A stretch of DNA of 64,000 bases, from the NCBI GenBank assembly GCA_034670305.1, contig JAXMNT010000021.1, positions 57,762-121,761 of the forward strand, read 5' to 3'. The first letter of the stretch is position 1, and every line of letters begins with the position of its first letter. Shown here piece after piece: positions 7,683 through 44,873 of this stretch. The stretch is from Deltaproteobacteria bacterium. GTDB lineage: Bacteria > Myxococcota_A > Polyangia > Polyangiales > Houyiibacteriaceae. The notes below the pieces were generated by a model. That model was not told the origin of the DNA and did not search any database. It saw only the letters and a program-made list of their open reading frames with translations. Both the position numbers and the translations under genes were made by a program.

Positions 7683-7892
7683 TGTCGCTGTGCTGTCTCT
7701 GCCGCTGTCTCCGCTGCCGCTGTCTCTGCCGCTGTCTCGGTCGCTGCCCTGTCGCTGGCGCTGCCGCTGCCGCTGCCGCTGCCGCTGCCGCTGTCTCTGT
7801 CTGTGTCTGTGTCGCTGCCGCTGTCTCTGTCTCTGTCGCTGTCGCTGCCCCAGTCTCTGCCGCTGCCGCTACCGCTGCCGCTGCCGCTGTCT
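7683..7892. repeat. Hexamer simple-sequence array (CCGCTG/TCTCTG/TGTCGC variants)
   Basis: Imperfect tandem hexamers seen directly over about 210 bp; boundaries approximate. Confidence 0.9.
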
Positions 7893-7897
7893 CGGAC

Positions 7898-8010: not shown

Positions 8011-8102
8011 GCTTCGGCTTCGGCTTCGGCTTCGGCTTCGGCTTCGGCTTCGGCTTCGGCTTCCGCTTCCGCTTCCGCTTCGGCTTCCGCTTCCGCTTCC
8101 GC
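8011..8102. repeat. Hexamer simple-sequence array (GCTTCG)n/(GCTTCC)n
   Basis: About 15 tandem hexamers just past the stop of the minus-strand kinase. Confidence 0.92.
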
Positions 8103-29517: not shown

Positions 29518-31440
29518 TCAGTCGCGCATCCAGGAGACGGCGAGCATCGCGGGGCCGGCGACGGTGGCGAGCGCGATCCAGAGCTGCGCGTGGTCCGGGA
29601 ACGCGAGCACGAGCAGCGCGCCCGCGAAGAGGCCGGGCGCGGCGACGTAGAAACGCCGGTCCGCCAGCAAGCCCGCGAGCACACATCCGCTGGCAAAGAA
29701 GAACAGCTCGATCGCGGTGCTGCGCAGATCCCACAGCCCCATCGCCAAGCTGATCATGCGCAGCAACACCCCGAGCAGCGTCAGGTAGACCAGGGTGAGC
29801 AACATGCGGCGTCCGCGGCGGTTGCTCGCGGTTCGGCGGCGCGTGATCCAGCCACCGACGGCGAAGAACCCCGCCAGCAGCACGTCGTAGATGAGCGTGT
29901 GCCACCACTGGTACTCGAGCATGCCGGCGCGCCGCAGTCCGTAGGCGACGAGGATCGGCAGCGCGACCACGAGTGTGCCGACGAAGAGCAGCCGCCCGCG
30001 GGTCTGACCGCCCGGGTCGTCGCTCTCCTCGTGGCCGAGGCGCTCGAGGCGCGCCGCTTCTTCGCGCTGCCGCTGCGCTTCTTGTCGGAGAGGCTCCGTG
30101 CGTTCGTCGTCGCCGACCTCTTCCAGCAACGTCTCGGCCGACGCCGCTTCGCCCCGCACCAGGTGGTAGTGCGCCATCACGAGCAACGCGGACTGCTGGC
30201 CTTCCACGGCGGACTCGTTGCCCGGCCACTGGTGGATCGCTTCGAGAAACCCGAACCGGCACCGCCCGAATGTGCGCTGCACGGTGGCGTTGCGATCGTC
30301 GCTGCGGGATGGGATGCGGGGCCCCGGTTTGGTGGGTTCGTCTTCGACCGCGTCGACGAGTGCCCGCAGGTCCTTCAACTCATCGTGTGCCTGTCGGGCG
30401 AGGCGTGCGCTGTTGCGGTGTTCCAGAAACCCGGCGATGGCGTCTCGCAGTGCTTCGACCGTCTCGTGCCGGTTCTCTGGATCGGGCTGCATCGCCTTCT
30501 TGCAGATCGCGGCCAGTTCGCTGGGCAGGTCGTCCGGCAACTCCGGCGGTTGCGCGTCGTACGCGGCGTAGAGCATCGCTTGCAGGCTCTCGCCGGTGTG
30601 GGGCGGCCGGCCGACGAGCAGCTCGTAGAGGGTGGCGCCGAGCAGGTACACGTCGGTTCGCGGGCCGAGCGCGCGCCGCGCGACGTCGACCATCTCGGGC
30701 GCGAGGTACGCCGGTGTGCCGAGCACCTCGCTGACCTCGTCGGCCATGGGGAGCCAGCCGCGGTACTTCTCGTTCGTGCAGACGGCGACGCCCCAGTCGA
30801 CCAGGACCACCTCCCGAAACGGACCGATCATCACGTTGTCGGGCTTCAGATCGAGGTGCAGCACCCCGCGTGCGTGGCCGTAGTGCACCGCGTCGCACAC
30901 CCGCATCAGGACCCGCAGATGCCAGCCGAGGCGATCGTCGCCGGAGCTGCGCGCGAGGGGATGATCCGGGTCGTGCATCACCCGCCTCCAGGGCACGCCT
31001 TCGATGCGTTTCATGACCAGGACCGGCGCGTTGCGTTCGTCGGTCTCGAGCCCGTAGAGCGGTACGACGTTCGGATGTTCGACCAGGCCGAGCATCCGAG
31101 CCTCCCGCAGCAGCCGCTGTCCGAACGACTCTTCGAGGAACTCGTCCCGCAACGTCTTGAGCGCGACGTCGCGGCGCAGCCCGCCCTGCTCGGCGAGCTG
31201 AATGGTGCCCATGCCGCCTTCGGCGAGCGGCCCCTTGATCCGCAACCGGCTGCTGCTGCGGTCCTCTTCCGCGGGCGGCGCGAGGGAACGCCGCGGGGGC
31301 GGCGGTACGCTGTGGCCTTCGCCCCGGACCTTGGGCGCGAGCGTTGGCTCCAGCGTGGCGTCGAGTGCCAGACCGTCCGGGACCGCGTCCATGTCGAGCA
31401 GCTCCATCAGCTGCTCGAGCGTCATCCTGCCGGTCGCCAT
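29518..31440 (-). CDS. Ser/Thr protein kinase (non-RD) with multi-pass TM C-terminus
   Basis: AEGGMG, VALK, HLDLKPDN, DWG and GTPAYLAPE motifs; about 5-6 hydrophobic helices at the C-terminus. Start uncertain (31440 or 31425). Confidence 0.88.
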   Translation of the reverse strand: MATGRMTLEQLMELLDMDAVPDGLALDATLEPTLAPKVRGEGHSVPPPPRRSLAPPAEEDRSSSRLRIKGPLAEGGMGTIQLAEQGGLRRDVALKTLRDEFLEESFGQRLLREARMLGLVEHPNVVPLYGLETDERNAPVLVMKRIEGVPWRRVMHDPDHPLARSSGDDRLGWHLRVLMRVCDAVHYGHARGVLHLDLKPDNVMIGPFREVVLVDWGVAVCTNEKYRGWLPMADEVSEVLGTPAYLAPEMVDVARRALGPRTDVYLLGATLYELLVGRPPHTGESLQAMLYAAYDAQPPELPDDLPSELAAICKKAMQPDPENRHETVEALRDAIAGFLEHRNSARLARQAHDELKDLRALVDAVEDEPTKPGPRIPSRSDDRNATVQRTFGRCRFGFLEAIHQWPGNESAVEGQQSALLVMAHYHLVRGEAASAETLLEEVGDDERTEPLRQEAQRQREEAARLERLGHEESDDPGGQTRGRLLFVGTLVVALPILVAYGLRRAGMLEYQWWHTLIYDVLLAGFFAVGGWITRRRTASNRRGRRMLLTLVYLTLLGVLLRMISLAMGLWDLRSTAIELFFFASGCVLAGLLADRRFYVAAPGLFAGALLVLAFPDHAQLWIALATVAGPAMLAVSWMRD

Positions 31441-31573
31441 GAATCGCCGCGATGCTACCAGCATGTGCGGTCGGGGCCAGGCGCCTCGAAGGTGCACGGA
31501 CCCGAGGGTCCGCCGACCGGTCCGGTCTGGACCGAAGCCGTGTCGCGGGGAAGAACGCTGCTACACTCGTGGG

Positions 31574-33976
31574 ATGAAATTCGTCTTCTGGGTGCTTGCT
31601 TCGCTGTCGCTGATCGTGGGTTGTGGTGGGGACGACAGTGGGGGCAGCTGCACCACCGCGGCGGACTGTGTGGCCGGGGCCGCCTGCGTCGATGGCATGT
31701 GCGTGCGCCGGATGGACGGCGGCGGAACCGACACCGGCGGCGGCGGCATGGACACCGGCGAGATGTGCCCGACCGAAGAGCGGACCTGCCGGGGTGGCAG
31801 CGCATGCTGTGCCGAGGGCGAAGAGTGCGTGGACGGGCTGTTCTGTTTCGACGTCTGCGAGAACACCCGATGCGGCGACAACGGCGCGGTGTGCTGCGGC
31901 GCGGACCAGACCTGCCTCGACGGCGTCCTGTGCGCCGCCGACTGTGCGGCGGACCGCGAACTCTGCGGCGCAGACCTCGAGCTCTGCTGCGACGCGGGCG
32001 ATGCGTGCGTGGCCGACGCCTGCGTCACGCCGGGCATCGAGTGCGGCGACGACTTCGACTGCCGCGACGCGGCGCTCTACTGCGAGCCGACCATCGGCCG
32101 CTGTTTGCCGACCCCGGGTGGCGAGGTCTGCGAAGTGCGCCCCGAGTTCGACGACATCTCGCTCGCGCTCGAGTGGCACTGGGAAGGCGTGATGTCCGCC
32201 GGCCGCCTGTACAGCGAGGTCATCACCCCGCCGGTCACTGGTGACGTGAGCGGCGACGGCATCCCCGACGTGATCGTTCCTGCCTACACCGGCACCGTCT
32301 ACCACGACCCGGTTCTGGTCGCGCTCAGCGGCGACACCGGCGCGCTCGTGATGCTCGTCGAACGCGACGGAGCGAACCGCGTGAGCCCCGAGGGCGAGGG
32401 CACCGCGCTCGCCAACTTCGACCCGAGCGACGACGCCCTCGAGATCGCGTACCGCCTCGACATCGGCGGCTTCCGCATCGTGGACGGCGACGGGGTCACG
32501 GAGATCGCGTACCGCACCGGCGAGAACATCCGCGGCACGATTGAGATCGCGGACCTGAACGCCGATGGCACGCCCGATCTGATCCTCGGCTGCCGCGCCT
32601 TCAACGGCCTCGACCCGAGCGACGCGAGCATGGACTTCTTCGACCGCGGCAACTGTGCCACCGGCGGATACTCGGCGACCTCGATCGCCGACCTCGACGG
32701 AGACGGAGAACCCGAAGTCACGTCCGGCGCGGTCGCGGTGAACGTCGATGGCTCCATCTTGTGGGGCAGCACCACTGGCGCCCATGCGCTGACGGCGATC
32801 GCCGACATGGACGTCAACGGCACCCCGGAGGTCATCACCGTGCGCGGCGGCGTGGTCGACATCCTCGACGGAGCCACCGGCGTGCGCTGGAGCGGGCTCT
32901 CCGCCCCGCTGCCCATTCCAGGCGGCGGCACCGGTGGCGCGCCGACCGTCGCCGACTTCGACGGCGATGGGCTCCCAGAGATCTCAGCCGCGGGCCGGGC
33001 CTTCTACACGGTCTACGATCCGGACTGCACGAGCGGCACCCCGCGCGCCGGCGGGACCTGCGTCTCGGGTGCGACCGACGGCATCCTCTGGTCCACCGGG
33101 ACCCAGGATCTGAGCTCCAGCGTGACCGGCTCGAGCGTGTTCGACTTCCAAGGGGATGGCGTCGCCGAGGTCGTCTACAACGACGAGTGTTTCCTCCACA
33201 TCTACGACGGCGAGACCGGCGAAGAGTTGCTCATGGAGCCGATTCCGAACAGTTCGCGCACCGGGTTCGAGTACCCGACCGTGGTCGACGTGGACGGGGA
33301 CGGAAACTCTGAGATCGTCGTCGGTGCCAACCGCGACCAGGCGGTCATCCGCGACCACTGCGACGATGCCTATTCGCGCGAGTTCGGGGTGCCGATCGCG
33401 GAGCTGCCGCCGGAGTACGCACGCGGCACCACGGGCGTGTTCTCCTACGGCGATTCGTTCGACCGATGGGTCGGCACCCGCCCGATCTGGAACCAGTTCA
33501 GCTACCACGTGAGCAACGTCGGACGCGACGGCTCGGTGCCTGCGGTGGAAGCGGACAACTGGACCACGGCCGGCCTCAACAACTACCGCCAGAACGTGCA
33601 GGGCGCGGGCATCTTCAACGCGCCGAACCTGGTCGTCGAACTCACCGCGGTCGACGCGTGCGGCTCGAGCGAAGTGCGGCTCTCGGCGCTGGTCCGCAAC
33701 GAAGGCTCACGCGGCGTCGCGGCGGGCGTCGCGGTGCAGTTCGTCCGCACCGACACCGGCACCGACGAAGTGGTCGGCAGCGCCAACACGACCCGCGCGC
33801 TCCTGCCGGGCGGCACCGAGCGGTTGACCATCGTCGTGACCGTGCCGCTCGACGTCGAGCTGACCTTCGAGGCGCGCGTGGACGGCTCGGACGCCGCACC
33901 CGCGGGGCTCGTGGTGGAGTGCAACGAAGACGACAACGCCGACGCCGCGATGGCGATGTGTCCGAGCTTCGGCTGA
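31574..33976 (+). CDS. Cys-rich lipoprotein with FG-GAP/VCBS repeats and CARDB-like C-terminus
   Basis: Lipobox IVGC; ADLDGDGEPEV, ADFDGDGLPEI, FDFQGDGVAEV and DVDGDGNSEI repeats; VRNEGSRG...ECNEDDN. Confidence 0.88.
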   Translation: MKFVFWVLASLSLIVGCGGDDSGGSCTTAADCVAGAACVDGMCVRRMDGGGTDTGGGGMDTGEMCPTEERTCRGGSACCAEGEECVDGLFCFDVCENTRCGDNGAVCCGADQTCLDGVLCAADCAADRELCGADLELCCDAGDACVADACVTPGIECGDDFDCRDAALYCEPTIGRCLPTPGGEVCEVRPEFDDISLALEWHWEGVMSAGRLYSEVITPPVTGDVSGDGIPDVIVPAYTGTVYHDPVLVALSGDTGALVMLVERDGANRVSPEGEGTALANFDPSDDALEIAYRLDIGGFRIVDGDGVTEIAYRTGENIRGTIEIADLNADGTPDLILGCRAFNGLDPSDASMDFFDRGNCATGGYSATSIADLDGDGEPEVTSGAVAVNVDGSILWGSTTGAHALTAIADMDVNGTPEVITVRGGVVDILDGATGVRWSGLSAPLPIPGGGTGGAPTVADFDGDGLPEISAAGRAFYTVYDPDCTSGTPRAGGTCVSGATDGILWSTGTQDLSSSVTGSSVFDFQGDGVAEVVYNDECFLHIYDGETGEELLMEPIPNSSRTGFEYPTVVDVDGDGNSEIVVGANRDQAVIRDHCDDAYSREFGVPIAELPPEYARGTTGVFSYGDSFDRWVGTRPIWNQFSYHVSNVGRDGSVPAVEADNWTTAGLNNYRQNVQGAGIFNAPNLVVELTAVDACGSSEVRLSALVRNEGSRGVAAGVAVQFVRTDTGTDEVVGSANTTRALLPGGTERLTIVVTVPLDVELTFEARVDGSDAAPAGLVVECNEDDNADAAMAMCPSFG

Positions 33977-34061
33977 GGGGCGACACCCAACATCGTTTGC
34001 GCCGTGCCTCCCCGCCGAACCGGACGTGGGAGCGCGGCGGGGAACGTGCTAGGCGTGCCGG

Positions 34062-34580
34062 ATGCCGACCTACGATGCCGCGCAAGCCGAGTGTTTCGTC
34101 TTCTCGTTCAAGGACGGTCTTCTGTCGAAGATCGCGCACGACCTCAAGATCCGAGTCGAGACGCTGGAGCTGACGGTGGACGGCGACTCGGTGTCCGCGC
34201 GCTTCGACGCGGGCAGCTTGCGGGTGGTGTGTGCGCGCAAAGCCAAGATGGACGCACCGGGCACCCTCGGTGCCTCGGACAAGAAGAAGATCGAGAAGAA
34301 CATCCGTGAGGACGTGCTCGCCGCGAAGAAGCACCGCGACATCACGTTCGTGTCCACCAAGGTCGTGCGCGACGACGACGGCGCGCTGGTCTCGGGCGAC
34401 CTCACCCTGCACGGCCGCACCCGCGCCATCGAGACCCGCGTCACCCGCCGCGGCGACCGGTGGTTCGCCGCGCTCGAGCTCGATCAACGCGACTTCGGCA
34501 TCACGCCCTTCAAAGCGATGCTCGGCACCCTGAAGATCCAGCCCATCGTGGGCGTGGAACTCAGCATCCCAGCCAGCTGA
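34062..34580 (+). CDS. YceI family protein
   Basis: FKDGLLSKIAHDL, VLAAKKHRDITF, GDLTLHG and DQRDFGITPF motifs. Confidence 0.85.
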   Translation: MPTYDAAQAECFVFSFKDGLLSKIAHDLKIRVETLELTVDGDSVSARFDAGSLRVVCARKAKMDAPGTLGASDKKKIEKNIREDVLAAKKHRDITFVSTKVVRDDDGALVSGDLTLHGRTRAIETRVTRRGDRWFAALELDQRDFGITPFKAMLGTLKIQPIVGVELSIPAS

Positions 34581-34602
34581 CCGGCGGCGCCGGTCCCTTG
34601 CC

Positions 34603-35790
34603 CTAGAACCTCGTGCCGAGCCGGATCTCCGCACCCAGGGCGAGGGCGCCGCCGTTGGCGCTCAGGTACTGGAGTTCGCCGACGCTGAGTTCGGCGTAGA
34701 ACTTGTTCGTCACGTTGTAGGCGGCGATCGCGGAGACGCGCGCCATGAAGTTCGGCACCCGATTGCCGCTGACGCTCTGGAAGAAGCCGACCTCGATCGA
34801 GGCGCCGAGGTGCAGCGGGAACGTGAACGGGCTCGCGAGGTACACGCCGCCGGCGAAGAGCGCGATCGCGCTGGCGCTTCCGAAGTCGTACTCGACGCCG
34901 GCCCGCAGCTCGAACCCGGGCAAGCTCTCGAAGCCGCGGCCGACCCGGAGCGCGAGGCTGCCGAGGGCGCCGCCGGTGCCGCCAGCGCCGGTCTTCACGA
35001 GACCACGCACGCCGCCGCCAACCTGCAACATCATCCGTCCATCCGCGACGCCGTAGCGGTCGCGGGTCTCGAAGGCGTGGGCTTCGTTGGCTTCGCGTTC
35101 GGCCGCTTCGCGTTCGGCCGCCTCGCGTGCTTCTCGCGCTTCGCGCTCGCGCTCCGCTTCTTCGGCCGCTTCGCGTTCGAGGCGGGCGGCTTCGTCGAGC
35201 CGCGCTTGTTCTTCCGCGTCGCGTTCGGCGATGCCCTCGGCAAGCCGGGCCGTTCGGTCCTCGCCCGCCAACGCGACCCCGTCGTCGCTCAATCCTTCGG
35301 GGCGCAGCATGGCTTGGAGCAACTCGACGAGCCGGTCGTCCTCGCGCGACAGCCGGACCTCGGCGTCGAGTTCTTCCACGCGGGTGGAGGGCGCGTAGCC
35401 GACGCGGAGCGTGAGGTAGTACCCGCGGGCGTGGTGGTCGTGTACGACGGGCACGATCGACCACGTCGCGTTCTGGAGCTCGGCCACGGCCCGCATCTCG
35501 TTGGCCGTCTCGGGCGGCGCGCCTCGAACCTCCGTTGCGCCGGCTTCGGTGACGGCTTCATGGGAGAGGGTGCGCACCGCTTCGGCAACCCGTTCTTCGA
35601 TTCGGTCGAGCTCTTCTTGGCTCGCACCACCGGTTCCACCGGAGGTCGTCGGAGGCAGCACGACGACCCGATCCGCCTTCGCCGGCGTCGCGGCGAGCAC
35701 ACCCGCGCCGATCAGCGCGATCGCGACGAGATGACGCGACCAGCGGCGGCAGAGAGAACGATGGTTCACGTTTGAAAGGGGAAAGCCCAT
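34603..35790 (-). CDS. Secreted protein: N-terminal alpha/beta domain, charged coiled coil and small C-terminal beta-barrel
   Basis: Signal peptide ending AKA; EAAER-rich helix; amphipathic strands ending in Phe (LGTRF). Start 35790 or 35769. Confidence 0.75.
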   Translation of the reverse strand: MGFPLSNVNHRSLCRRWSRHLVAIALIGAGVLAATPAKADRVVVLPPTTSGGTGGASQEELDRIEERVAEAVRTLSHEAVTEAGATEVRGAPPETANEMRAVAELQNATWSIVPVVHDHHARGYYLTLRVGYAPSTRVEELDAEVRLSREDDRLVELLQAMLRPEGLSDDGVALAGEDRTARLAEGIAERDAEEQARLDEAARLEREAAEEAEREREAREAREAAEREAAEREANEAHAFETRDRYGVADGRMMLQVGGGVRGLVKTGAGGTGGALGSLALRVGRGFESLPGFELRAGVEYDFGSASAIALFAGGVYLASPFTFPLHLGASIEVGFFQSVSGNRVPNFMARVSAIAAYNVTNKFYAELSVGELQYLSANGGALALGAEIRLGTRF

Positions 35791-35881
35791 GGGTGGCCCA
35801 CAATGGGGCAAGAACCCGGCCAAGTCCCAGTTTAATGGGCGTTCGGCCTCCGGCTGGGTCGTTTTGGCCATCGCCGCTCGG

Positions 35882-36340
35882 CTACTGGAAGTGGACTTCG
35901 AGGTCTTCGCAGGGCGTGGGGGCGAAGCCGCCGTCGTCGGTGCGCGATCCGCAGGAGAAGCCGGCGGGGAAGTCGTGGACCCACGCTTCGCTGTGTTCGC
36001 TCGCGTCGTCGATGAACACGAGCGCCACGCCCGAGGCGGCGCCCGTGGTGCGCGCGAGCGGGGTGCCGAGCCGAGGCACGGTGCCGAGCGGCAGGAGCAG
36101 GATCTCGCCGAGCGCCAAGCCACGGTCGAACGCGGCGGCTGGGGGGCGGTCTGCGAGTGCGACCTCGAAGCGACCGTCCTCCGCGTGGCCTTCGCCGTAG
36201 AGCAGCCCTGGCTGGCCCCACCGCACCGTCAGCGTGCCCGGATCGTCGTTGGTCAGCGTGCCTTCGGCGCGCATCGACCGTCCGCAGGCCGCGGCGACCA
36301 ACACCGACAAGACCACCAAGCTGACAACGATCCACCGCAC
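35882..36340 (-). CDS. Hypothetical lipoprotein
   Basis: GTG start, hydrophobic leader, lipobox AAAC. Confidence 0.65.
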   Translation of the reverse strand: MRWIVVSLVVLSVLVAAACGRSMRAEGTLTNDDPGTLTVRWGQPGLLYGEGHAEDGRFEVALADRPPAAAFDRGLALGEILLLPLGTVPRLGTPLARTTGAASGVALVFIDDASEHSEAWVHDFPAGFSCGSRTDDGGFAPTPCEDLEVHFQ

Positions 36341-36497
36341 GATGGGTGGTTTACGTTGCAAGCACCGATCCACTTCCCGCGCATGGTCGATTGTTCCAAA
36401 CCCCCGACGATCCGCACCGCAGCCAGACGCTCAGGTCCGCACAACCCAGTCGATCACTGCCATCCGTGTCATGGGTGTCGTCCCTCGTTCACGTGGT

Positions 36498-37373
36498 TCA
36501 CGTGGTGAGGTGTGACTCGAAGGTGTGGCGGAGGGGCTGGTGGGGGCGGGGGTCGTAGATGGGGAAGACGACGCGATCGAACGCGCCGGCGAAACAACCG
36601 TCCAGCCAGCGGCGAAACGAACTGGCCACCATGTCGGGGTCGCAGCCGAAGACGCCGCAGCCCCAAGCGCCGAGCACGAGCGTGCGGTGGGCGTTGCTCT
36701 GGGCGACCGCGAACATCGCGCCGACGCGTTTGCGAAATGTGGATTCGACCACGGCGGCCGCGTCGTCGCGCTTCTTTTCGAGCTTGCGCATGTGCGGCGC
36801 GGCCATGGTCAAGACGCCCGCGGGGTACACGTGGTCGAGGCGGCTCTTGCTGCGCACGCGGAAGAACGGGACGGCCGGTGAGTAGATCGCCGCGTCGGAG
36901 TACAGGTGGGTCCGCGCGGCGCGGTGCTGGGCATAGAAGCCGCCCGGCACGTTCTGTTCGATCAGGCAGGGATGCAGCGCGGAGCATCGGGCGAGGTCTT
37001 CTTCTTGCGCCCGGGCGCCACTCAGAAACCCTCCGCCGGGTTTGAGCGCCGAGGCGAAGTTGAGCACCACGATGTGCTCCGTGCCTTCCTTCACCACCAG
37101 GCGATGTGCCGCTTGCTGCGACGTCTCGCCGGTGACCTCGACCTTCACCGCCGGCGCCGAGGCTTGCCCGAACTCGATCGCGCGCGCGCCGTAGGTCGCG
37201 AGCATCGTGTTCGTTTGCTGAGGCGAGAGCGTCACGGTGTGCTTCACCGCGTGGGCGATGGCGTCGCCGAACCGGACCTCGGTCCCGCTCTTGTGGGTGT
37301 AGCCCCCCGCGGCCAGGATCCGCTGAGTCTCGACCGCGACCTCCTTGAGTGCCTCGTCGTGATAATGCGCCAC
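36498..37373 (-). CDS. Bacterial-type poly(ADP-ribose) glycohydrolase (TIGR02452/DUF2263 macrodomain)
   Basis: VLNFASALKPGGGFLSGARAQEEDL (GGG-x7-QEE), IYSP.V and LVLGAWGCGVF motifs. Confidence 0.92.
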   Translation of the reverse strand: MAHYHDEALKEVAVETQRILAAGGYTHKSGTEVRFGDAIAHAVKHTVTLSPQQTNTMLATYGARAIEFGQASAPAVKVEVTGETSQQAAHRLVVKEGTEHIVVLNFASALKPGGGFLSGARAQEEDLARCSALHPCLIEQNVPGGFYAQHRAARTHLYSDAAIYSPAVPFFRVRSKSRLDHVYPAGVLTMAAPHMRKLEKKRDDAAAVVESTFRKRVGAMFAVAQSNAHRTLVLGAWGCGVFGCDPDMVASSFRRWLDGCFAGAFDRVVFPIYDPRPHQPLRHTFESHLTT

Positions 37374-37379
37374 GTTCTC

Positions 37380-37385
37380 AACCTA
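37380..37385 (-). promoter_or_regulatory. Putative -10 box (TAGGTT) of a leaderless PARG transcript
   Basis: TAnnnT 6 nt upstream of the GTG start with no SD; the same spacing recurs at many genes in the window. Confidence 0.5.
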
Positions 37386-37460
37386 CCGCGGCGACGGATC
37401 GATCGGGACAGGAAACACCCCTCTTGTGCTCCGGCGAAAGCTTCGGCAGCCTCCCCGGTC

Positions 37461-39242
37461 ATGGCCACCAAGAAGTCCTCCAAGAAGCCCGCGAAGAAAC
37501 CTGCCAAGAAGGCTGCGAAGAAGGCGGCGAAGAAGGCCGCGCCCAAGAAGAAGAAGGCACCGGCGAAGAAGGCTGCGAAGAAGGCCGCGAAGAAGGCACC
37601 GGCCAAGAAGGCCGCGAAGAAGGCACCGGCCAAGAAGGCTGCGAAGAAGGCCGCGCCGAAGAAGGCCGCGCCGAAGAAGGCCGCGCCGAAGAAGGCCGCG
37701 CCGAAAAAGGCCGCACCGAAGAAGCTCGCGCCCAAGAAGAAGGCCGCCGCCGCACCGGCCGCCAAACCGACCGCAGGCGCCGACGGAGTGCTTCTCGAAG
37801 CCACGTTGAACTGGACCGACCTGACCGGCGCGCGCACCGGCGCGACGTCGAAGGGATCCAACAAGTTCTACAAAGCGAAGATCACCGAAGCCGGCGGCGG
37901 CTTCCAGGTCACGTTCAACTACGGCCGCGTGGGTCAGACCGGCCAGCAGCAGACCGCCTGGGCACCGACCTTCGAAGCGGCGAAGAAGATCTTCGACAAG
38001 AAGATCAAGTCCAAGGTCAGCAAGGGTTACCGCCCGCTCGAGATGCGGAGCACCGCGGATGAGCTCGAGAAAGCGAAAGCCAAGGGCGTCACGCCCGACG
38101 CCGGCAAGCCGAAGAAGAAGAAGCCGACGAAGTCATTCCCGCCGGGCGTCGAGAAGCTGCTTTCGATCATGTACCAGACGGCCGGATCGGCGGCGCAGAA
38201 GGGCCTCAGCGCGTCCGCGGGCGCCAGCAAGTCCGCGCCGCTTGGCAACCTGCACGACTCGCAGCTCGACAAGGGCGGCGACATCCTCGAGCAGATCGAC
38301 GCGCTTCTGGAGAAGTCGACCAAGCCGCCCCGCCAGCAGCTGATCAACCTCACCAACGACTACCTCTCGAACATCCCGCGAAACATCGACCACGCGGTGC
38401 GTGGTGGCCGGCTCGACATCGACGCCATCTTGCTCGACCGCGAGGAACGCGTCGCCAAGGAGCGTGAGTTCATCAGCCTGCTTCGCGACCTGCACCTCCA
38501 GAAGGAAGTCTTCAAGCAGGCGGCTGCCGCGGACTCGCCCTACGAGGCTTGGTACGACGGTCTTCAGTGCGACATCGACAGCCTGGAACCGGGCTCCAAG
38601 GAGTTCGAGAAGTGCCGCGTCGCGTTCGACGAGGGCCAGTCGCCCATGAACTCGAACTACTTCGGCAAGCTGAAGGTGAGCCGGGCTTGGAAGCTCGAGC
38701 GCAAGGGCAAGAATGCCGCGTTCCAGAAGTACGCCGACACGATGATCAAGAAGAAGGGCGCGACCGGCATCGAGCTCGGTTGGCACGGCACCCGGACCCA
38801 GAACCTCATGGGCATCTCGCGCTCGGGTCTGTTGATGCCGGAGAACCTGCCGAAGGGCGTCGTCATCACCGGCAAGGCGTTCGGCATGGGCATCTACCAC
38901 GCGCCTCGATGGGCGGATGCAGGCGTGGATCAGAAGCAGGGCAAAGAGACGTTCCGCCGCTACAACGGCGCGCTCAAGAGCATGAACTACACCTCGCTCC
39001 GCGGCGCGTACTACGGCGCGGGCAACACGGGCAAGACGGGCTACCTCTACCTGGAAGAGATGGCGCTCGGCGTCCCGGAAGTGCACCTGACGGCGTGCTG
39101 GGGCCGCAAGCGCCCGGCCAAGGGCTTCGACTACATCTACGCCAAGGCGTTCGGCAACAAGCAGCTCTCGCACGACGAGGTCGTCACCTTCGACGAGAAC
39201 GCGTCGCGCCTGACCCACCTGCTCGAGATCGTCCACAAGTAG
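37461..39242 (+). CDS. PARP-family ADP-ribosyltransferase: histone-H1-like tail + WGR + helical regulatory + catalytic domain
   Basis: AKK/PKK repeats; SNKFY...YGRVGQ...KVSKGY; PLGNL...LTNDYLSNIP; WHGT, FGMGIY, KSMNY and HDEVVTFD (H-Y-E). Confidence 0.9.
   Translation: MATKKSSKKPAKKPAKKAAKKAAKKAAPKKKKAPAKKAAKKAAKKAPAKKAAKKAPAKKAAKKAAPKKAAPKKAAPKKAAPKKAAPKKLAPKKKAAAAPAAKPTAGADGVLLEATLNWTDLTGARTGATSKGSNKFYKAKITEAGGGFQVTFNYGRVGQTGQQQTAWAPTFEAAKKIFDKKIKSKVSKGYRPLEMRSTADELEKAKAKGVTPDAGKPKKKKPTKSFPPGVEKLLSIMYQTAGSAAQKGLSASAGASKSAPLGNLHDSQLDKGGDILEQIDALLEKSTKPPRQQLINLTNDYLSNIPRNIDHAVRGGRLDIDAILLDREERVAKEREFISLLRDLHLQKEVFKQAAAADSPYEAWYDGLQCDIDSLEPGSKEFEKCRVAFDEGQSPMNSNYFGKLKVSRAWKLERKGKNAAFQKYADTMIKKKGATGIELGWHGTRTQNLMGISRSGLLMPENLPKGVVITGKAFGMGIYHAPRWADAGVDQKQGKETFRRYNGALKSMNYTSLRGAYYGAGNTGKTGYLYLEEMALGVPEVHLTACWGRKRPAKGFDYIYAKAFGNKQLSHDEVVTFDENASRLTHLLEIVHK
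37470..37765 (+). repeat. Coding tandem repeats (GCCGCGCCGAAGAAG-type) encoding the Lys/Ala/Pro-rich tail
   Basis: 12-15-bp imperfect units seen directly. Confidence 0.85.
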
Positions 39243-39263
39243 GGCCTGCGTTTCGCTTCGATG

Positions 39264-39302
39264 GGCCAGGCTCGCTTCGGGAGAAGCAAGCCTGGCCTTT
39301 TT
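39264..39302 (+). terminator. Intrinsic terminator after the PARP gene
   Basis: GGCCAGGCT-c-GCTTC-ggga-GAAGC-a-AGCCTGGCC stem followed by TTTTT, 21 nt after the stop. Confidence 0.75.
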
Positions 39303-39365
39303 CGGTGGGCCTTTTCGGTGGGGGGAGCTTTTCGGAGCAGGCACTTTGGCGTAGGGTGCTGCGCC

Positions 39366-39758
39366 ATGACCCAGAAGATCCTCGCTCTCGCTCTGTTCGC
39401 GCTCACCTTTGGCTGCGGTGGCGGCGACGTGAACCAGACCCACACCGGCGCGCTCGAGACGAGCGATGACAAACGACCGGAAGATCAGTCGTACTTCGAC
39501 GAGTACACGTTCTCGACCGTGCAGGGCGCGCAGATCGACATCACGATGACGTCGACCGAGTTCGACTCGTACCTGATCGTCTCCGGCCCGAGCGGCCAGG
39601 AGTTCGGGCAGAACGACGACATGGCCCCAGGCAACCTCAACGCGCAGGTCACCGGCGTGGCCCCCGAAGGCGGGACCTACACGGTCGTCGCGAACTCGGC
39701 TCAGGCGGACGAAGTCGGGGCGTACACCCTCACGATTCGCGCGACGAAGGCCCCGTAG
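39366..39758 (+). CDS. Small lipoprotein with a PPC (pre-peptidase C-terminal)-like domain
   Basis: Lipobox TFGC; FDEYTF...FDSYLIV.GPSG...NDD...GTYTVVANS...GAYTLTI. Confidence 0.85.
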   Translation: MTQKILALALFALTFGCGGGDVNQTHTGALETSDDKRPEDQSYFDEYTFSTVQGAQIDITMTSTEFDSYLIVSGPSGQEFGQNDDMAPGNLNAQVTGVAPEGGTYTVVANSAQADEVGAYTLTIRATKAP

Positions 39759-39866
39759 AACATCTGGCCAGGCGGGGAGGTCTAGGATCGTCGGGCTTTG
39801 TCCGGTCGAGCCGAATTCCCCGCCCGTGAACTGGGCTCTGGCCGGAGTTCCTGTAGAATGAGCGCC

Positions 39867-40901
39867 GTGCGTACCTTTTGCTTGTGGGCCGCTGTGGCCG
39901 TCGGCACCGGTGTGGCCGCGCCCACCCTCGCCGAGGCCCAAGAGGCCGCCACCGAAGAGGCCGAAACGACCGAGACCGAAGACGCGGTCGCGACCGCCGA
40001 ACGGACCCAGCAGGAGTCCTCGGACGTCACCGGCAGCGTGGCCAACCGTCAGGCCGCCGCCCAAGCGTACGACCGCGCCGCCAACTACTACGTCGGCGAG
40101 CAGTACCGTTCCGCGGGGCAGTGGTTCATGGCCGCCTACCGCCTCGCGCCCGCCCGCGCCGCGCTCGTGCAAGCGGTGCGCAGCTACCGCCGCGCGGGTT
40201 CGATCCAGCGTGCCGGCACGCTGGCCCTCTTGCTCGCCCAGAGTTTCCCGGACGATGGCCCCGCAGTGCAGCTCGCCACCGAGGTCATGGACGAAGCCGG
40301 ACGCAACTCCGTGCACATCACCGTGGCCTGCGACGGATGCGCGGTCGAAGTCGACGGTCGGCTGCTCGCGACCCTCGGTGCCTACGTGACCGCTGGGCAG
40401 CCGCATCAGGTCATCGCGCACTTCGGCGACATGCAGGAGACGCGAGCGGCTCAGGGGGAAGAGGGCGAGCAGGTGTTCCTCGAGATCGAGACACCCGAGG
40501 GCGCAAACCTTCAGAACGAGGAGCTCGAGCCGGAGCACATCCGGCGGGCCCGCGAACGCGCGAACGATCCCGGCATCCGCGTGCTGCATCCGGCCGTCTT
40601 CTGGTCGGCGCTCGTCGTCACCGCGGCGGTGGGTGGGCTCACGGTGTGGTCGGGGCTCGACACCGTTGCGGGCGTGGACGCCTACGAGCTCATGCCCACC
40701 CAAGAAGCGTACGACGCGGGTCAGGACAAAGAGTTCCGGACCAACCTCCTCATCGGTGTCTCGGCGGGCCTCGCGGCCATCACGCTCTTGAGCATCGTCT
40801 TCACCAACTTCGGCGGGTCCCCCGACGAAGAAGCGCCCACCACCGTCTCGTTCGGTGCATCGCCCGAAGGCGCCATGTTCATGTTGCGGAGCGCGCTGTG
40901 A
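39867..40901 (+). CDS. Secreted/membrane protein with TPR-like helices and a PEGA-like domain
   Basis: Signal peptide; AAQAYDRA...AYRLAP helices; AVEVDG; two late hydrophobic helices. GTG 39867 lies 7 nt after TAGAAT (alternative ATG 39858). Confidence 0.75.
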   Translation: MRTFCLWAAVAVGTGVAAPTLAEAQEAATEEAETTETEDAVATAERTQQESSDVTGSVANRQAAAQAYDRAANYYVGEQYRSAGQWFMAAYRLAPARAALVQAVRSYRRAGSIQRAGTLALLLAQSFPDDGPAVQLATEVMDEAGRNSVHITVACDGCAVEVDGRLLATLGAYVTAGQPHQVIAHFGDMQETRAAQGEEGEQVFLEIETPEGANLQNEELEPEHIRRARERANDPGIRVLHPAVFWSALVVTAAVGGLTVWSGLDTVAGVDAYELMPTQEAYDAGQDKEFRTNLLIGVSAGLAAITLLSIVFTNFGGSPDEEAPTTVSFGASPEGAMFMLRSAL

Positions 40902-40938
40902 GTTCTTCGACGAAGCGCGACGTGCGGGAGGCCTGGCT

Positions 40939-42501
40939 GTGACTGGCACCGGATCCCGACCCACCCGCACCGCGGCCAACGTCGCGCCGGTCAGCGGTGG
41001 GCAGTACCTCGGCCGCTACCAGTTGCTCGCCAAGCTCGCGAGCGGCGGCATGGCCACCGTGTTCCTCGCCCGCATCGGCGGCGTCGGCGGGTTCGATCGC
41101 CGCGTCGCGATCAAGGTCCTGCACCCGCATCTGTCGGAGGACGCGCAGATCCGCGACATGTTCCTCGACGAGGCCCGTCTCGCGGCCCGCATCCGCCACC
41201 CGAACGTTGTCCCCGTGACCGACGTCGGCGACGAGCCGGGCCACGGCACGTTCCTCGTCATGGACTACATCGAGGGCTGCGACCTCTCGAAGGTGATCCG
41301 CACCGCGTCGCAGCGTCAAACCAAACTCTCGCCCGTCGTGGTGGCCCGCATCGTCTACGACATGCTCGGCGGACTGACGGCGGCCCACGAACTCAAAGAC
41401 GGGGACGGCAACGCGCTCGGGGTCGTGCACCGCGACATCTCTCCGCACAACGTCATCGTCGGGGTCGACGGCATCGCGCGCATCACCGACTTCGGCATCG
41501 CGAAAGCCGAAGGCCGGATCAGCTCCACCAAGACCGGCCAGCTCAAGGGCAAGCTCGCGTACATGCCACCCGAGCGGCTCGCGGCCAAGAAGTCGCAGCG
41601 GCTCGACGACGCGCGCGGCGATCTGTTCGCCACCGGCATCGTGCTCTGGGAGTCGCTCACCGGCCGCCGTCTGTTCCGCGGCGAAGACGACCTCGACACG
41701 GTGCGCAAGGTCCTCCAGGACGAGGTGCGACCCGTGTCGAGCTTCCGTCCGGAGCTCGCGCCCCTCGACCATGTAGTCGCCAAGGGGCTCGAGCGGGATC
41801 CGGACCAGCGCTACCAGACGGCCCGCGAGTTCCGCGCCGAGCTCGAACGGGCGGCTTCGGAGATCGGCGGCATCGGCCGTCCGGAGCAGGTGACCGCCGC
41901 ACTGCGCGGGCTCGTCGGCGGCAGTCTCGACAAACAGCGCGACGCGGTCGCGGCCGCGGTCAAAGCCACCGAAGAGGGCGGCGGACGGCCACCCACGGAC
42001 GCCTTCCCGACCCAGGGCGGCGATCCCGGCACCGGCTCCCACACCGGCACCGCCATCGCGACGCAGAAAGCGCCGATCATCTGGCGCGCTGCGACGCTGG
42101 TGCTCTTGGTCGCGCTCGTCGGGCTCGGCACCTACATCGTCGGCCGGCTCCGCACGACGGAGCCTCCGCCCGACACCGCCACCGCGCCCACGGCGCTCAC
42201 GGTGGTGGAGGTGACCGAAGAGCCCCCGGAAGTCGAAGTCGAAGCCGAAGTGCCTGAGGTTCCCGTCGAGACCGAGACGGAGACCGAGATCGCTGAGACG
42301 GCCGAGGTCGAAACCGAGACCGAGACCGAGATGGTGGCCGAGACGCCGCGGGTCTCGATGCGATCGATGCGCGGCTCGATGCGGAGTGAGATGACGGCCG
42401 AGATGGTGGTGGAGACCGCCATGGAGACCGTGATGGAAACACCGATGTCCATGCGGGTGACCCCGATGGAAGAGGTGCTCGAGAACCCCTATGCGAACTG
42501 A
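40939..42501 (+). CDS. Membrane Ser/Thr protein kinase with a Glu/Thr/Met-rich tail
   Basis: GGGAGG SD before GTG; ASGGMA, VAIK, HRDISPHN, DFG and GKLAYMPPE motifs; TM helix; ends ENPYAN. Confidence 0.9.
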   Translation: MTGTGSRPTRTAANVAPVSGGQYLGRYQLLAKLASGGMATVFLARIGGVGGFDRRVAIKVLHPHLSEDAQIRDMFLDEARLAARIRHPNVVPVTDVGDEPGHGTFLVMDYIEGCDLSKVIRTASQRQTKLSPVVVARIVYDMLGGLTAAHELKDGDGNALGVVHRDISPHNVIVGVDGIARITDFGIAKAEGRISSTKTGQLKGKLAYMPPERLAAKKSQRLDDARGDLFATGIVLWESLTGRRLFRGEDDLDTVRKVLQDEVRPVSSFRPELAPLDHVVAKGLERDPDQRYQTAREFRAELERAASEIGGIGRPEQVTAALRGLVGGSLDKQRDAVAAAVKATEEGGGRPPTDAFPTQGGDPGTGSHTGTAIATQKAPIIWRAATLVLLVALVGLGTYIVGRLRTTEPPPDTATAPTALTVVEVTEEPPEVEVEAEVPEVPVETETETEIAETAEVETETETEMVAETPRVSMRSMRGSMRSEMTAEMVVETAMETVMETPMSMRVTPMEEVLENPYAN

Positions 42502-43723
42502 TCCGCCGAGTTCCCCGACTTCCCCGAGCGCCAGAGCCCGCGTGCTCTTGGTCCTGTCGGTTTTCGCGCTCGGTGCGTGTGACGTGTACGACATCGCGTT
42601 CCTGGAAGCACTCGATGCCCAGACACGCGACGGTGGCGGCGTCGACGTGGGACCGGAGGACGCGCCGGACCTGCCCGATGGCACGGACGGCGGCGGTGAA
42701 GAAGACGCGCCCGACATGGACGCGGCCGACATCGGACCGGTGGACGCACCCGAGATCGACGCGCCCATGGACGATGCCGGCACCGACGCCGGACCCGCCT
42801 GTCCGCTCAAACATCCGAACACCCGACCGGCGGCCGGCACCGAAGGGCCCGATGGTCCCGAGATCTCCTTCGCGCTGCGCGACGTGATCTTCGACCAACG
42901 CGCCAACCGCTGGCAGGACGTCGCGTACGACATCGACAACAGCTGCACCCTGGAGCTGACCGACGAGTTCTTGTGCACCCCGCCCACCGGCGGGGCGCCC
43001 ACCCTCGACGGCGACATGGGCGAAGACAACTCGGTCGGCCGGGAGCTCTTCTCGGTGCTGGTCGGCTTCGATCCAACCTTCGAGTCCGAGATGCAGGCGC
43101 TCATGGCGGGTGGCCGGACCATCGTGCTCCGGGTGAACGGCTGGAACGGCATGGACGACGATCCGCGGGTGGATGTCTCCATCGGCCAGGCGGTGGGGCT
43201 CGAACGTCCGGACGTCGAGACCACGCCGCAGTGGGACGGGGACGACACCTGGAACATCGCGGACACAAGCTTCGTCTCTGGTGACCCGGCCCGCCCGCTG
43301 ATTCGAGACGACAACGCGTACGTCTCGGGCCGTCAGCTCGTCATGTCGATGCCTGACCGTCAGCGCATGGTGATGCCTTGGGCCAACGGGGAACTCTTCA
43401 CGTTGCTGCTGACCGACGCGAAGTGGACCGGCTTCATCAACGCGGACGCGACGCGGATGGAGCAGGTCATCCTGTCTGGCCGCTACGCGGAGATGGACAT
43501 CGGGCCGGCCTTCACCACGGTGGGGATCTGTCCCGGCAGTTTCGAGCGCGGCATCGTCGACGCGGAGATCCGAGAAGACCTCGATGTTCGGTCTCGCCCC
43601 GGAAGCGGCGGCCCCGGCATCATGTGCGACGCGCTCTCGGTCGGCCTCGGGTTCACGGGCTACGCCTCGACGTGGGGCAGCCCGCTGCCGCCGCCCGAGC
43701 CTGGCCCGCCCGCCTGTCCGTGA
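42491..43723 (+). CDS. Hypothetical lipoprotein
   Basis: Lipobox LGAC; overlaps the kinase stop; paralog of the next gene (GEDN, GWNG..DDPRV, CDALSVG). Confidence 0.8.
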   Translation: MRTDPPSSPTSPSARARVLLVLSVFALGACDVYDIAFLEALDAQTRDGGGVDVGPEDAPDLPDGTDGGGEEDAPDMDAADIGPVDAPEIDAPMDDAGTDAGPACPLKHPNTRPAAGTEGPDGPEISFALRDVIFDQRANRWQDVAYDIDNSCTLELTDEFLCTPPTGGAPTLDGDMGEDNSVGRELFSVLVGFDPTFESEMQALMAGGRTIVLRVNGWNGMDDDPRVDVSIGQAVGLERPDVETTPQWDGDDTWNIADTSFVSGDPARPLIRDDNAYVSGRQLVMSMPDRQRMVMPWANGELFTLLLTDAKWTGFINADATRMEQVILSGRYAEMDIGPAFTTVGICPGSFERGIVDAEIREDLDVRSRPGSGGPGIMCDALSVGLGFTGYASTWGSPLPPPEPGPPACP

Positions 43724-43731
43724 GACCCAGC

Positions 43732-44841
43732 ATGGTTCGTTGGGATGGAACCCGCGTTCGCCCGAGGGTTCACGCGGCGTGCGTCGTGCTGGGGTGCGTC
43801 GTGCTCGTGGTGCTCGCGTGTGGTTGCGCCGACACCCACGTGGAAGAGGACGCGGACGTCCGCGACGCGTCGTCGGTGGACGCGCATCTCCCCTTGGCCG
43901 ACGCCGGCGTAGATGCGTCTGCCGACGCGGGCGTCGACGCGTTCCGGCCCGACGCCTACAGCCCGTTCGAACATCCACCCGAGCGACCGATGGTCGCCGA
44001 CGAGTCGGGACCGCCCCTCTCGTTCGCGCTCCGAGCACCTGGGCTCTCACATCCAGAAGACTGGGCGTCGGTCGCGTTCGACCTCGACCACGAGATCACC
44101 GACGGCACGTCGCTCGTGTGCATGCCGCCCGGAGACGCGCCGAGTGTTGCGGATGGTGCGCGGGGCGAAGACAACGCGTTCGCGCTCCGACTGATGCCGG
44201 TGCTCGCGCTCGTCTCGCCCGAGCTGGAAGATGAGGCGCGCGCAGGCACAGAGACCGCGCCGATCGTCCTCCACATCGACGGATGGAACGGGCGCGCGGA
44301 GGACCCGCGGGTGACGGTGTGGCTGGCACACGCGCTGCCGGGTGAGAGCGCGCCGCGGTGGGATGGCACCGATCGTTGGTCGCTCGAGGACTCGGACTTC
44401 GTGGAAGGCGCGCCCGACCGTCCGATCAACCAGGACGACAACGCATTCGTTGCCGGAGGCCGGTTGGTCGCCGAGCTGCCGGCGCGTCAGTCGATTCGGC
44501 TGCGCGCGCCGGACGGCGGCACCCTCGAGTTCCGCCTCACCCAGACCCGCTTCGTCGCCACGCTCGAGGAAGGCGCCTTGAGCGGTGTGACGATGACGGG
44601 CCGGTTCGCATCCATCGACCTCGACTTCGCGCTCGACCTGCTCGGGATCTGCCCCGAGGCGCCGGACCACGCCGTGATCCAGGCAGAGATCGCCCGCAGC
44701 CAGGACGTGCGAAGCACCCCAGGCAGCGGCGGTCCGGGGGCCACCTGCGACGCGTTGAGTGTGGGGATCGACTTCTCGGCGACCCGCGCGGAGATCGGTG
44801 CCATCGACCCCGCGATGCTGCCGGTGGGTCGGTGCGACTGA
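43732..44841 (+). CDS. Hypothetical lipoprotein, tandem paralog
   Basis: LACGC; GEDNAF, GWNGRAEDPRV, DDNAFV and PGSGGPGATCDALSVG shared with the upstream gene. Confidence 0.8.
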   Translation: MVRWDGTRVRPRVHAACVVLGCVVLVVLACGCADTHVEEDADVRDASSVDAHLPLADAGVDASADAGVDAFRPDAYSPFEHPPERPMVADESGPPLSFALRAPGLSHPEDWASVAFDLDHEITDGTSLVCMPPGDAPSVADGARGEDNAFALRLMPVLALVSPELEDEARAGTETAPIVLHIDGWNGRAEDPRVTVWLAHALPGESAPRWDGTDRWSLEDSDFVEGAPDRPINQDDNAFVAGGRLVAELPARQSIRLRAPDGGTLEFRLTQTRFVATLEEGALSGVTMTGRFASIDLDFALDLLGICPEAPDHAVIQAEIARSQDVRSTPGSGGPGATCDALSVGIDFSATRAEIGAIDPAMLPVGRCD

Positions 44842-44873
44842 CGCTCTGACGCACGCGGGCTCCAGACGTGCGC

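Follow-up and report, generated by a model that had tools for sequence, protein, structure and literature searches.

A candidate DNA-activated (poly)ADP-ribose writer/eraser gene pair in Myxococcota and a co-occurring DNA-binding-type partner protein

Background

Although bacterial poly(ADP-ribose) polymerases (PARPs) have been known since 2011, what they act on and what they do for the cell has yet to be established. A locus in the genome of a Deltaproteobacteria bacterium (Myxococcota_A; assembly GCA_034670305.1) raises the question of whether such an enzyme may work together with a neighbouring poly(ADP-ribose) glycohydrolase (PARG). The locus lies at positions 36498-39302 of a 64,000-nucleotide stretch of contig JAXMNT010000021.1, called the window below, in which all coordinates are given unless another contig or locus is named. 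It comprises a PARG gene (PARG-A) on the minus strand and a PARP gene (PARP-A) on the plus strand, placed head to head and 87 bp apart. According to the evidence presented here, these genes probably (at roughly 0.72) encode a regulated, DNA-activated (poly)ADP-ribose writer/eraser pair whose PARP belongs to a family that occurs chiefly in Myxococcota. The intactness of both genes, the domains, motifs and fold of their products, and their linkage and co-occurrence were observed directly.

Features of the two enzymes

By family and motifs, PARG-A is a bacterial-type PARG. The gene starts with GTG, with an in-frame stop three codons upstream, and its product matches Pfam PF10021 (DUF2263; E 5.3e-43, 147.3 bits, cut-off 23.5) and NCBIfam TIGR02452 (E 1.5e-70, 237.7 bits, cut-off 50). 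Residues 10-285 align with the solved PARG of Thermomonospora curvata (TcPARG, 3sig_A; E 1.2e-50) and residues 77-288 with that of Deinococcus radiodurans (DrPARG, 5zdb_A; E 2.5e-41). The PARG signature PGGGFLSGARAQEED (GGG-x7-QEE; consensus GGG-X6-8-QEE) and the diphosphate-binding loop LGAWGCGVFG are both intact, as the initial annotation of this DNA had reported, and both align to the same residues of TcPARG.

Behind a long N-terminal tail, PARP-A carries a WGR domain (PF05406, E 1.5e-15, 57.5 bits, cut-off 22), a helical regulatory domain (PARP_reg, PF02877, E 2.2e-11, 44.4 bits, cut-off 26.8) that AlphaFold2 modelled as helices, and an ADP-ribosyltransferase (ART) catalytic domain whose Pfam match covers residues 379-484 (PF00644, E 1.7e-8, 34.6 bits, cut-off 26.7). 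This is the architecture that the initial annotation had described, and the H-Y-E triad that it had named was found as well: H442 (WHGT), Y479 (GIY) and E573 (HDE) are invariant in an alignment of 21 family sequences, as are G155 and R156 of the WGR domain. A full-length alignment with a second, more canonical PARP of the same genome (22% identity) accounts for the C-terminal half of PARP-A, places E573 on the catalytic-position Glu of that enzyme and contains a family-specific insertion of ~21 residues after GIY. The AlphaFold2 model of PARP-A, with a mean confidence (pLDDT) of 70.9 and values below 50 in residues 1-107, matches the WGR and catalytic chains of PARP1 bound to a DNA break (7s6m_D, E 7.6e-24) and resembles PARP1 chain 4opx_C with a template-modelling score (TM) of 0.73 and a root mean square deviation (rmsd) of 4.0. 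The best PDB sequence match of PARP-A is human PARP2 (E 1.1e-16; profile E 2.8e-30).

Conservation of the gene pair

A search of 5.8 billion proteins returned 283 matches to PARP-A, and the figures given below rest on the 120 that were listed. All of these are at least 55% identical and have the three domains, and the named ones come from Myxococcota; judged from these sequences, the family occurs mainly in this phylum. Gene neighbourhoods were surveyed at 105 related loci, 47 from species genomes and 58 from metagenomes, the flanks of which were searched by tblastn; the metagenome loci came from an alignment-based scan, a single-protein scan having found no relative. PARG adjoins PARP in five other loci (L005, L066, L094, L120 and L122), in all of which PARP is at least 70% identical to PARP-A. 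L122 was counted from the metagenome tblastn run and is absent from the pooled run as its PARP fragment is short. In all five, PARG lies upstream of PARP on the same strand, the gap, measured in two of them, being 64 bp (L005) and 34 bp (L094), whereas the head-to-head order occurs only in the present genome among the loci examined. The initial annotation had named such a survey beforehand as the check that might overturn it, and the adjacency was retained in these five relatives. No PARG was found nearby at any of 26 loci with PARP identities of 60-70% (19 of them extending 1 kb or more upstream) or at any of 68 loci below 60% (56 informative), and the upstream sequence of two short fragments, L117 and L121, which exceed 70% identity over 53 and 31 residues only, is likewise without PARG.

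PARG-A matches the reverse strand of L005 and the last ~38 nt before the PARP-A ATG match its forward strand, so that the head-to-head order arose when an ancestral operon, PARG then PARP, was inverted locally, the breakpoint lying between 37374 and about 37422. This operon is the ancestral layout of the sub-clade, and a third protein, called X and described below, is usually encoded convergently after it. A search for inverted repeats as a possible cause of the rearrangement gave no more than three short pairs, none of which flanks PARG-A. In a tree of 15 rows, PARG-A is sister to the linked PARG of L005 (support 100/99), and the other PARG of its own genome comes next (94/92).

The adjacency could also be meaningless, two unrelated genes having come to lie side by side when the region was rearranged or when the assembly went wrong across the Lys/Ala repeat that encodes the tail of PARP-A. 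The region has indeed been rearranged by the inversion, X has moved away, and the contigs assembled from single sequencing runs end within the tail repeat (37607-37676). Nevertheless, one 13,821-nt contig covering 35800..37607, and with it PARG-A, the intergenic region and the opening 147 nt of PARP-A, bridges the junction in each of four DNA runs, not to be counted as independent since this DNA may derive from them. Moreover, five independently assembled relatives keep PARG beside PARP, and the 'MATKK...' start of PARP-A also heads the PARP of relatives. A chance or artefactual junction is therefore scarcely credible, although the exact length of the tail is uncertain because assemblies break inside its repeat.

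The adjacency is accompanied by co-occurrence. PF10021 was found in 30 of the 44 genomes with a member of the PARP-A family, which are metagenome bins of unknown completeness and, where related, not independent, compared to 42 of 401 sampled genomes of the phylum; PARG is enriched in PARP-bearing genomes, yet not obligate. Because adjacency is conserved in five loci of the closest clade and PARG is enriched in PARP genomes, a functional link between the two genes is supported. The initial annotation had proposed a co-regulated reversible module, of which the functional link stands, whereas the divergent layout with a shared promoter region is not conserved, all five relatives having the genes on one strand.

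As also stated in the initial annotation, a terminator closes the PARP side. The folded RNA of 39236-39370 contains a hairpin of 10+5 bp at 39263..39298, followed by the U-run; its z-score is -3.72, and none of 200 shuffled sequences folded as well. A simple terminator scanner reported only a weaker 5-bp stem at 39294..39311. A sigma-70 promoter scan of 36000-39900 gave no site and an Rfam search of 30000-46000 no RNA family. A second stable hairpin, of 8 bp, lies past the terminator, directly 5' of the likely ATG (39366) of a gene for a PPC-domain lipoprotein.

A co-occurring partner, protein X

The tightest partner of the PARP-A family is not PARG but X, a protein of ~220 residues. X is encoded beside PARP in 23 of 47 genome loci, according to flanking-ORF (open reading frame) clustering, and in 21 of 58 metagenome loci, according to a flank search, and adjoins PARP in 44 of the 104 loci scored in the pooled tblastn run. 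Where adjacent, its gene is co-directional with PARP if upstream and of either orientation if downstream. X is present in 42 of the 44 PARP-bearing genomes, 16 of which contributed to the query profile, and in two of the 401 sampled phylum genomes. These two, the present genome and G120, are precisely those with a PARP-A orthologue (E about 1e-250); three more genomes of the even sample gave weak PARP or WGR matches. One named strain, Paraliomyxa miuraensis SMH-27-4 (L012), has a member of the PARP family with X beside it. In the present genome X is unlinked to PARP-A and lies on contig C5 between cell-wall enzyme genes; this copy is 70% identical to that of L005. The description of the locus as a self-contained system did not hold, because this obligate-type partner is encoded on another contig; the hydrolases for terminal ADP-ribose, of the Macro and ADP-ribosylglycohydrolase (ARH) types, also lie elsewhere.

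No sequence match to X was found in Pfam, NCBIfam, PADLOC or PDB. Its structural model is confident (pLDDT 87.5) and consists of a winged helix in residues 1-100, resembling Fur-type DNA-binding domains (Z 7.6-7.0), and an MraZ-like tandem AbrB fold in residues 118-218 (1n0e_A, Z 8.1, rmsd 3.6 over 97 residues). Foldseek likewise returned MraZ (9r4j_B, E 1.3e-3), without a sequence-profile match to MraZ or SpoVT-AbrB, and the ESM Atlas gave weak leads only, to DUF7669 (0.81) and a MazE_antitoxin cluster (0.75). Neither phage records searched by tblastn nor the viral contigs contained a match to X.

The close association with X bears on a different interpretation, according to which PARP-A is a PARP3-like mono-ADP-ribosyltransferase or DNA-end modifier, X is its true partner and PARG-A acts on another substrate. 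X co-occurs with PARP far more tightly than PARG does, many more genomes of the phylum sample contain PARG (42) than PARP (5), and the presence of PARG is reported to correlate weakly with that of PARP in bacteria (PMC4245714). The divergent C-terminal half of the ART domain and the insertion after GIY would also fit. However, the H-Y-E triad is intact and invariant, and the published bacterial PARPs with this triad make poly(ADP-ribose) (PAR) (PMC5966428, PMC8120803). The closest-clade operon would in addition be hard to explain without a polymer substrate, since bacterial-type PARGs act on PAR chains (PMC6445106). We therefore regard mono-ADP-ribosylation with an unrelated PARG as improbable, and prefer the writer/eraser pair.

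X may also belong with the pair. It is conceivable, though we hold this only tentatively, that the genes form a three-part system of Myxococcota, made up of a divergent DNA-sensing PARP, X as an obligate DNA-binding partner from no described family and, in one sub-clade, an operon-encoded PARG; diverged relatives of this PARP are encoded on very large viral contigs. X might then be the subunit that targets PARP to DNA, its main substrate or an active-site cofactor similar to HPF1.

The N-terminal tail of PARP-A

The tail of PARP-A comprises 109 residues, 92% of them Lys, Ala or Pro and 40% Lys. In composition it resembles histone H1. Membership of the histone H1-like family NF038053 was considered and rejected, as the profile score of 25 bits lies below the cut-off of 80; the resemblance does not go beyond amino-acid composition. 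The underlying DNA is an array of tandem repeats with periods of 12, 15 and 27, and its third-position GC content of 0.88, compared to 0.92 in the core of PARP-A, fits a coding frame. N-terminal extensions of at least 20 residues were found in 39 of the 120 listed relatives, 11 of which have at least 30% Lys in the extension; among the matches listed, such extensions are mostly on the relatives closest to PARP-A. The tail, like the conserved same-strand order and X, was left out of the initial annotation.

Similar Lys/Ala-rich tails are present in the same genome on a trigger factor, an AHSA1-like protein, an ArsR-HTH methyltransferase, a TfoX_N protein, a glyoxalase-like protein and two proteins without family match, so that the tail is not unique to PARP; several contigs of the genome end within such repeats. 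Hexanucleotide microsatellites are also abundant, at two places in the window and ~65 further ones, and in six-frame translation give long PKPKPK, LPLPLP or RKRKRK runs.

Genome context

The neighbours of the pair in the window are genes for FG-GAP, YceI and Ser/Thr kinase proteins and the PPC-domain lipoprotein. In sub-clades of the family, PARP lies near the gene for a polyphosphate kinase (8 loci), for an FHA-domain protein (7 loci) or for a universal stress protein (6 loci), which probably reflects local synteny; no DNA ligase was present among the neighbour clusters scanned. The second PARP and second PARG of the genome are on separate contigs (C67 and C35) and thus not adjacent; a Macro-domain gene lies ~10 kb from the second PARP. 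The genome holds five Macro and four ARH matches, two of them full-length. One full-length ADP-ribosylglycohydrolase is encoded on the contig of the window, ~3.4 kb before it and ~39 kb upstream of PARG-A; it could remove terminal ADP-ribose, and it is unlinked to PARG-A. Two viral contigs, of 536 kb (L130) and 315 kb (L131), encode PARP relatives with 43% and 41% identity, respectively, over residues 113-590. Hidden Markov models (HMMs) of X and PARG gave nothing below E 2 among the ORFs within 4 kb of these two.

These viral relatives, together with the fast evolution of the linked PARG, could point to a conflict system, in which PARP would be a toxin or abortive-infection effector, depleting NAD+ or modifying DNA or protein on phage attack, and PARG the antidote. 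Bacterial operon pairs of an ART and a hydrolase are usually toxin-antitoxin systems (PMC8120803), and the WGR region of PARP-A weakly matches two PADLOC candidate models (WGR_XIII, 4.3e-8; HEAT-ARM_XIII, 5.7e-4). DarT/DarG and other such pairs likewise have a writer beside an eraser, of the macrodomain type (PMC7050489, PMC8120803). However, DarTG is described as a strict two-gene operon acting on thymine of single-stranded DNA, whereas the linkage seen here is confined to one sub-clade and the writer is a regulated three-domain PARP. PADLOC matched neither PARG-A nor X, nor PARP-A beyond its WGR domain, and identified no defence system at the locus, no mobile-element genes are near it, and the window, over 31-44 kb, has ordinary chromosomal neighbours and neither integrase nor defence genes. 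PARG is unlinked in all informative distant loci and undetected in part of the genomes, which would not be tolerable if PARP were a lethal toxin. Furthermore, PARP is highly conserved among the listed clusters, and PARP-A retains the autoinhibitory helical domain of regulated PARPs. As neither family-wide linkage of the two genes nor a defence-model match beyond the WGR domain was found, a conflict system is unlikely, and nothing points to the toxin-antitoxin or anti-phage role that had been suggested from the sequence.

Table 1. Coordinates of the gene pair, of protein X and of other features mentioned in the text (window positions unless a contig, C, or surveyed locus, L, is named)
Feature	Coordinates	Strand	Remarks
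PARG-A	36498..37373	-	bacterial-type poly(ADP-ribose) glycohydrolase by ORF, profile and PDB alignment; 291 aa
Divergent intergenic region	37374..37460	.	87 bp; carries inversion breakpoint
PARP-A	37461..39242, stop codon included	+	593 aa; tail, WGR, helical, ART
K/A/P-rich N-terminal tail	37461..37787	+	PARP-A residues 1-109; predicted disordered; DNA a tandem-repeat array
WGR domain	37848..38039	+	PARP-A residues 130-193; YGR motif Y154-G155-R156
PARP regulatory (helical) domain	38142..38537	+	PARP-A residues 228-359
ART catalytic domain	38595..39239	+	PARP-A residues 379-593; H442, Y479, E573
Intrinsic-terminator-like hairpin and U-run	39263..39302	+	starts 21 nt past PARP-A stop codon
Second hairpin	39346-39365		8 bp
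X, own genome	C5:228457-229098 (L052:1501-2157)	+ (L052)
X copy in relative	L005:7445-8095	-
X copy in relative	L094:6448-7125	-
X copy in relative	L030:5252-5932	+
Second PARP, own genome	C67:750-2369 (L001)	-	no tail; PF00644 90 bits
Second PARG, own genome	C35, about 1600-2490 (L003:1480-2319)	+ (L003)	46% identical to PARG-A
Macro-domain gene	C67:11714-12088
ADP-ribosylglycohydrolase	C21:54372-55202		PF03747, E 5.3e-62; full-length
H1-like tails on unrelated proteins	C4:125211-127364, C7:68411-71494, C49:29874-31139, C33:43896-44705, C25:1-1140, C9:140946-143243, C96:2-322
PARP relatives on viral contigs	L130, L131		match ~4001-5520
Sub-clade neighbours of PARP (polyphosphate kinase, FHA-domain protein, universal stress protein)	L034:7828-10926, L019:4146-5969, L032:7487-8308
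Hexanucleotide microsatellite	7686-7893		CCGCTG x30
Hexanucleotide microsatellite	8011-8099		GCTTCG x15

Relation to known systems

Like the present genome, those of Herpetosiphon aurantiacus (HaPARP) and Clostridioides difficile CD160 (CdPARP) each hold a PARP with WGR, helical and ART domains and the H-Y-E triad together with a DUF2263-type PARG carrying the consensus signature (PMC5966428; PMC8120803). HaPARP requires DNA and makes PAR, and the products of both enzymes are removed by their own PARGs (PMC5966428; PMC8120803); for these two, DNA-stimulated synthesis and reversal were demonstrated in vitro. Judged from the locus tags given in PMC5966428 (Haur_4763/Haur_1618 and QEW_4625/QEW_4455), the HaPARP and CdPARP genes are apparently far from those of their PARGs, in contrast to the adjacency found here and the operon of the closest clade. 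PARP-A further differs from both by its H1-like tail, by the residues inserted after GIY and by an ART domain whose C-terminal half escapes the profiles.

Human PARP2 (6usj, 6x0l; PMC4770219) has the same order of parts as PARP-A, with a basic disordered N-terminus followed by WGR, helical and ART domains; its N-terminal region is disordered and all three of its domains contribute to DNA binding (PMC4770219). The identity is, however, ~20%, the tail of PARP-A is a low-complexity K/A/P repeat without a role in nuclear localisation, and PARP-A has no HPF1 or nucleosome context. H1-like K/A/P domains are DNA-binding modules in some myxobacterial CarD proteins (PMC9304148). PARG-A is homologous over its full length to TcPARG and DrPARG (PMC6445106) and shares their catalytic and diphosphate loops. 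TcPARG acts only as an exo-enzyme, owing to its ribose cap, and DrPARG also as an endo-enzyme; PARG-A may work in either mode. PAR accumulates in a PARG mutant of D. radiodurans, which recovers poorly from UV (PMC6445106), and no PARP has been identified in that species (PMC8120803).

A myxobacterial PARP with a PARG in the same genome, that of Plesiocystis pacifica, has already been published (PMC4245714, Table 3), and PARPs of 'Deltaproteobacteria' are in the clades 2.1 and 2.2 of a published survey (PMC5966428, section 5). The novelty of the pair had therefore been overrated: earlier papers already cover bacterial PARPs, bacterial PARGs and genomes that hold both (PMC4245714, PMC5966428). 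The available parts of these two surveys do not describe gene linkage, the tail or the partner protein, and the open-access literature searched contained no paper in which PARG and PARP form an operon, a bacterial PARP carries an H1-like tail or X appears.

Discussion

Several observations weigh against a DNA-activated (poly)ADP-ribose writer/eraser pair. The Pfam match to the catalytic domain of PARP-A spans only positions 1-93 of a model of 199 positions, the PDB profile alignments end just after GIY, and the last ~105 residues have diverged beyond the reach of Pfam and PDB profiles, so that poly- or mono-ADP-ribosylating activity can hardly be read from so divergent a catalytic domain, 22% identical to its more canonical counterpart. 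Outside the clade with at least 70% PARP identity, none of the 75 loci whose upstream sequence extends to 1 kb or more has a PARG nearby, and the two genes are therefore not a fixed module of the family. PARG was also undetected in 14 of the 44 PARP-bearing genomes, bins of unknown completeness, and the family does not strictly need it. The identity of PARG-A and the L005 PARG is 57%, compared to 81% between their PARPs, which could signal relaxed constraint on PARG. The tail may go untranslated if an alternative GTG start at 37788 is used, which could yield a tail-less PARP-A, and, being a promiscuous module of this lineage, it need not be an adaptation specific to PARP.

Taken with the intact motifs, the conserved operon and the co-occurrence, these points leave the writer/eraser pair as the preferred interpretation. 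We infer from the observed features that PARP-A would be enzymatically active, that its product would be a polymer made in dependence on DNA, and that the pair would function in the response to stress or DNA damage, with a role for the tail. In the proposed mechanism, the helical domain would keep PARP-A inactive until the WGR domain, through its YGR motif, binds a DNA break or a similar DNA structure and so frees the ART domain. The latter would spend NAD+ at H442-Y479-E573 to ADP-ribosylate PARP-A itself and nearby DNA-bound proteins, while the polycationic, disordered tail might hold the enzyme on the nucleoid, as does the basic N-terminal region of PARP2. In its action the tail might equally resemble the H1-like DNA-binding domain of some myxobacterial CarD proteins. 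PARG-A would then trim the ADP-ribose chains, leaving the protein-proximal ADP-ribose to Macro or ARH hydrolases from other parts of the genome. In this genome, PARG has been inverted to its divergent position, and X is encoded on another contig.

The locus is of interest mainly for the operon and for the obligate partner X, and less for the divergent pair itself. The operon ties PARP to PARG genetically, beyond their mere presence in the same genome, and X provides a strictly co-occurring, DNA-binding-type candidate target or cofactor for a bacterial PARP. Natural variants of the family with and without the polycationic tail allow a direct test of nucleoid tethering, and genetics of the family may be possible in P. 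miuraensis SMH-27-4 if this strain can be grown and manipulated. If the three-part system is real, it would, together with the H1-like tail, amount to a bacterial PAR signalling circuit in the style of chromatin and could reveal the targets of bacterial PARPs.

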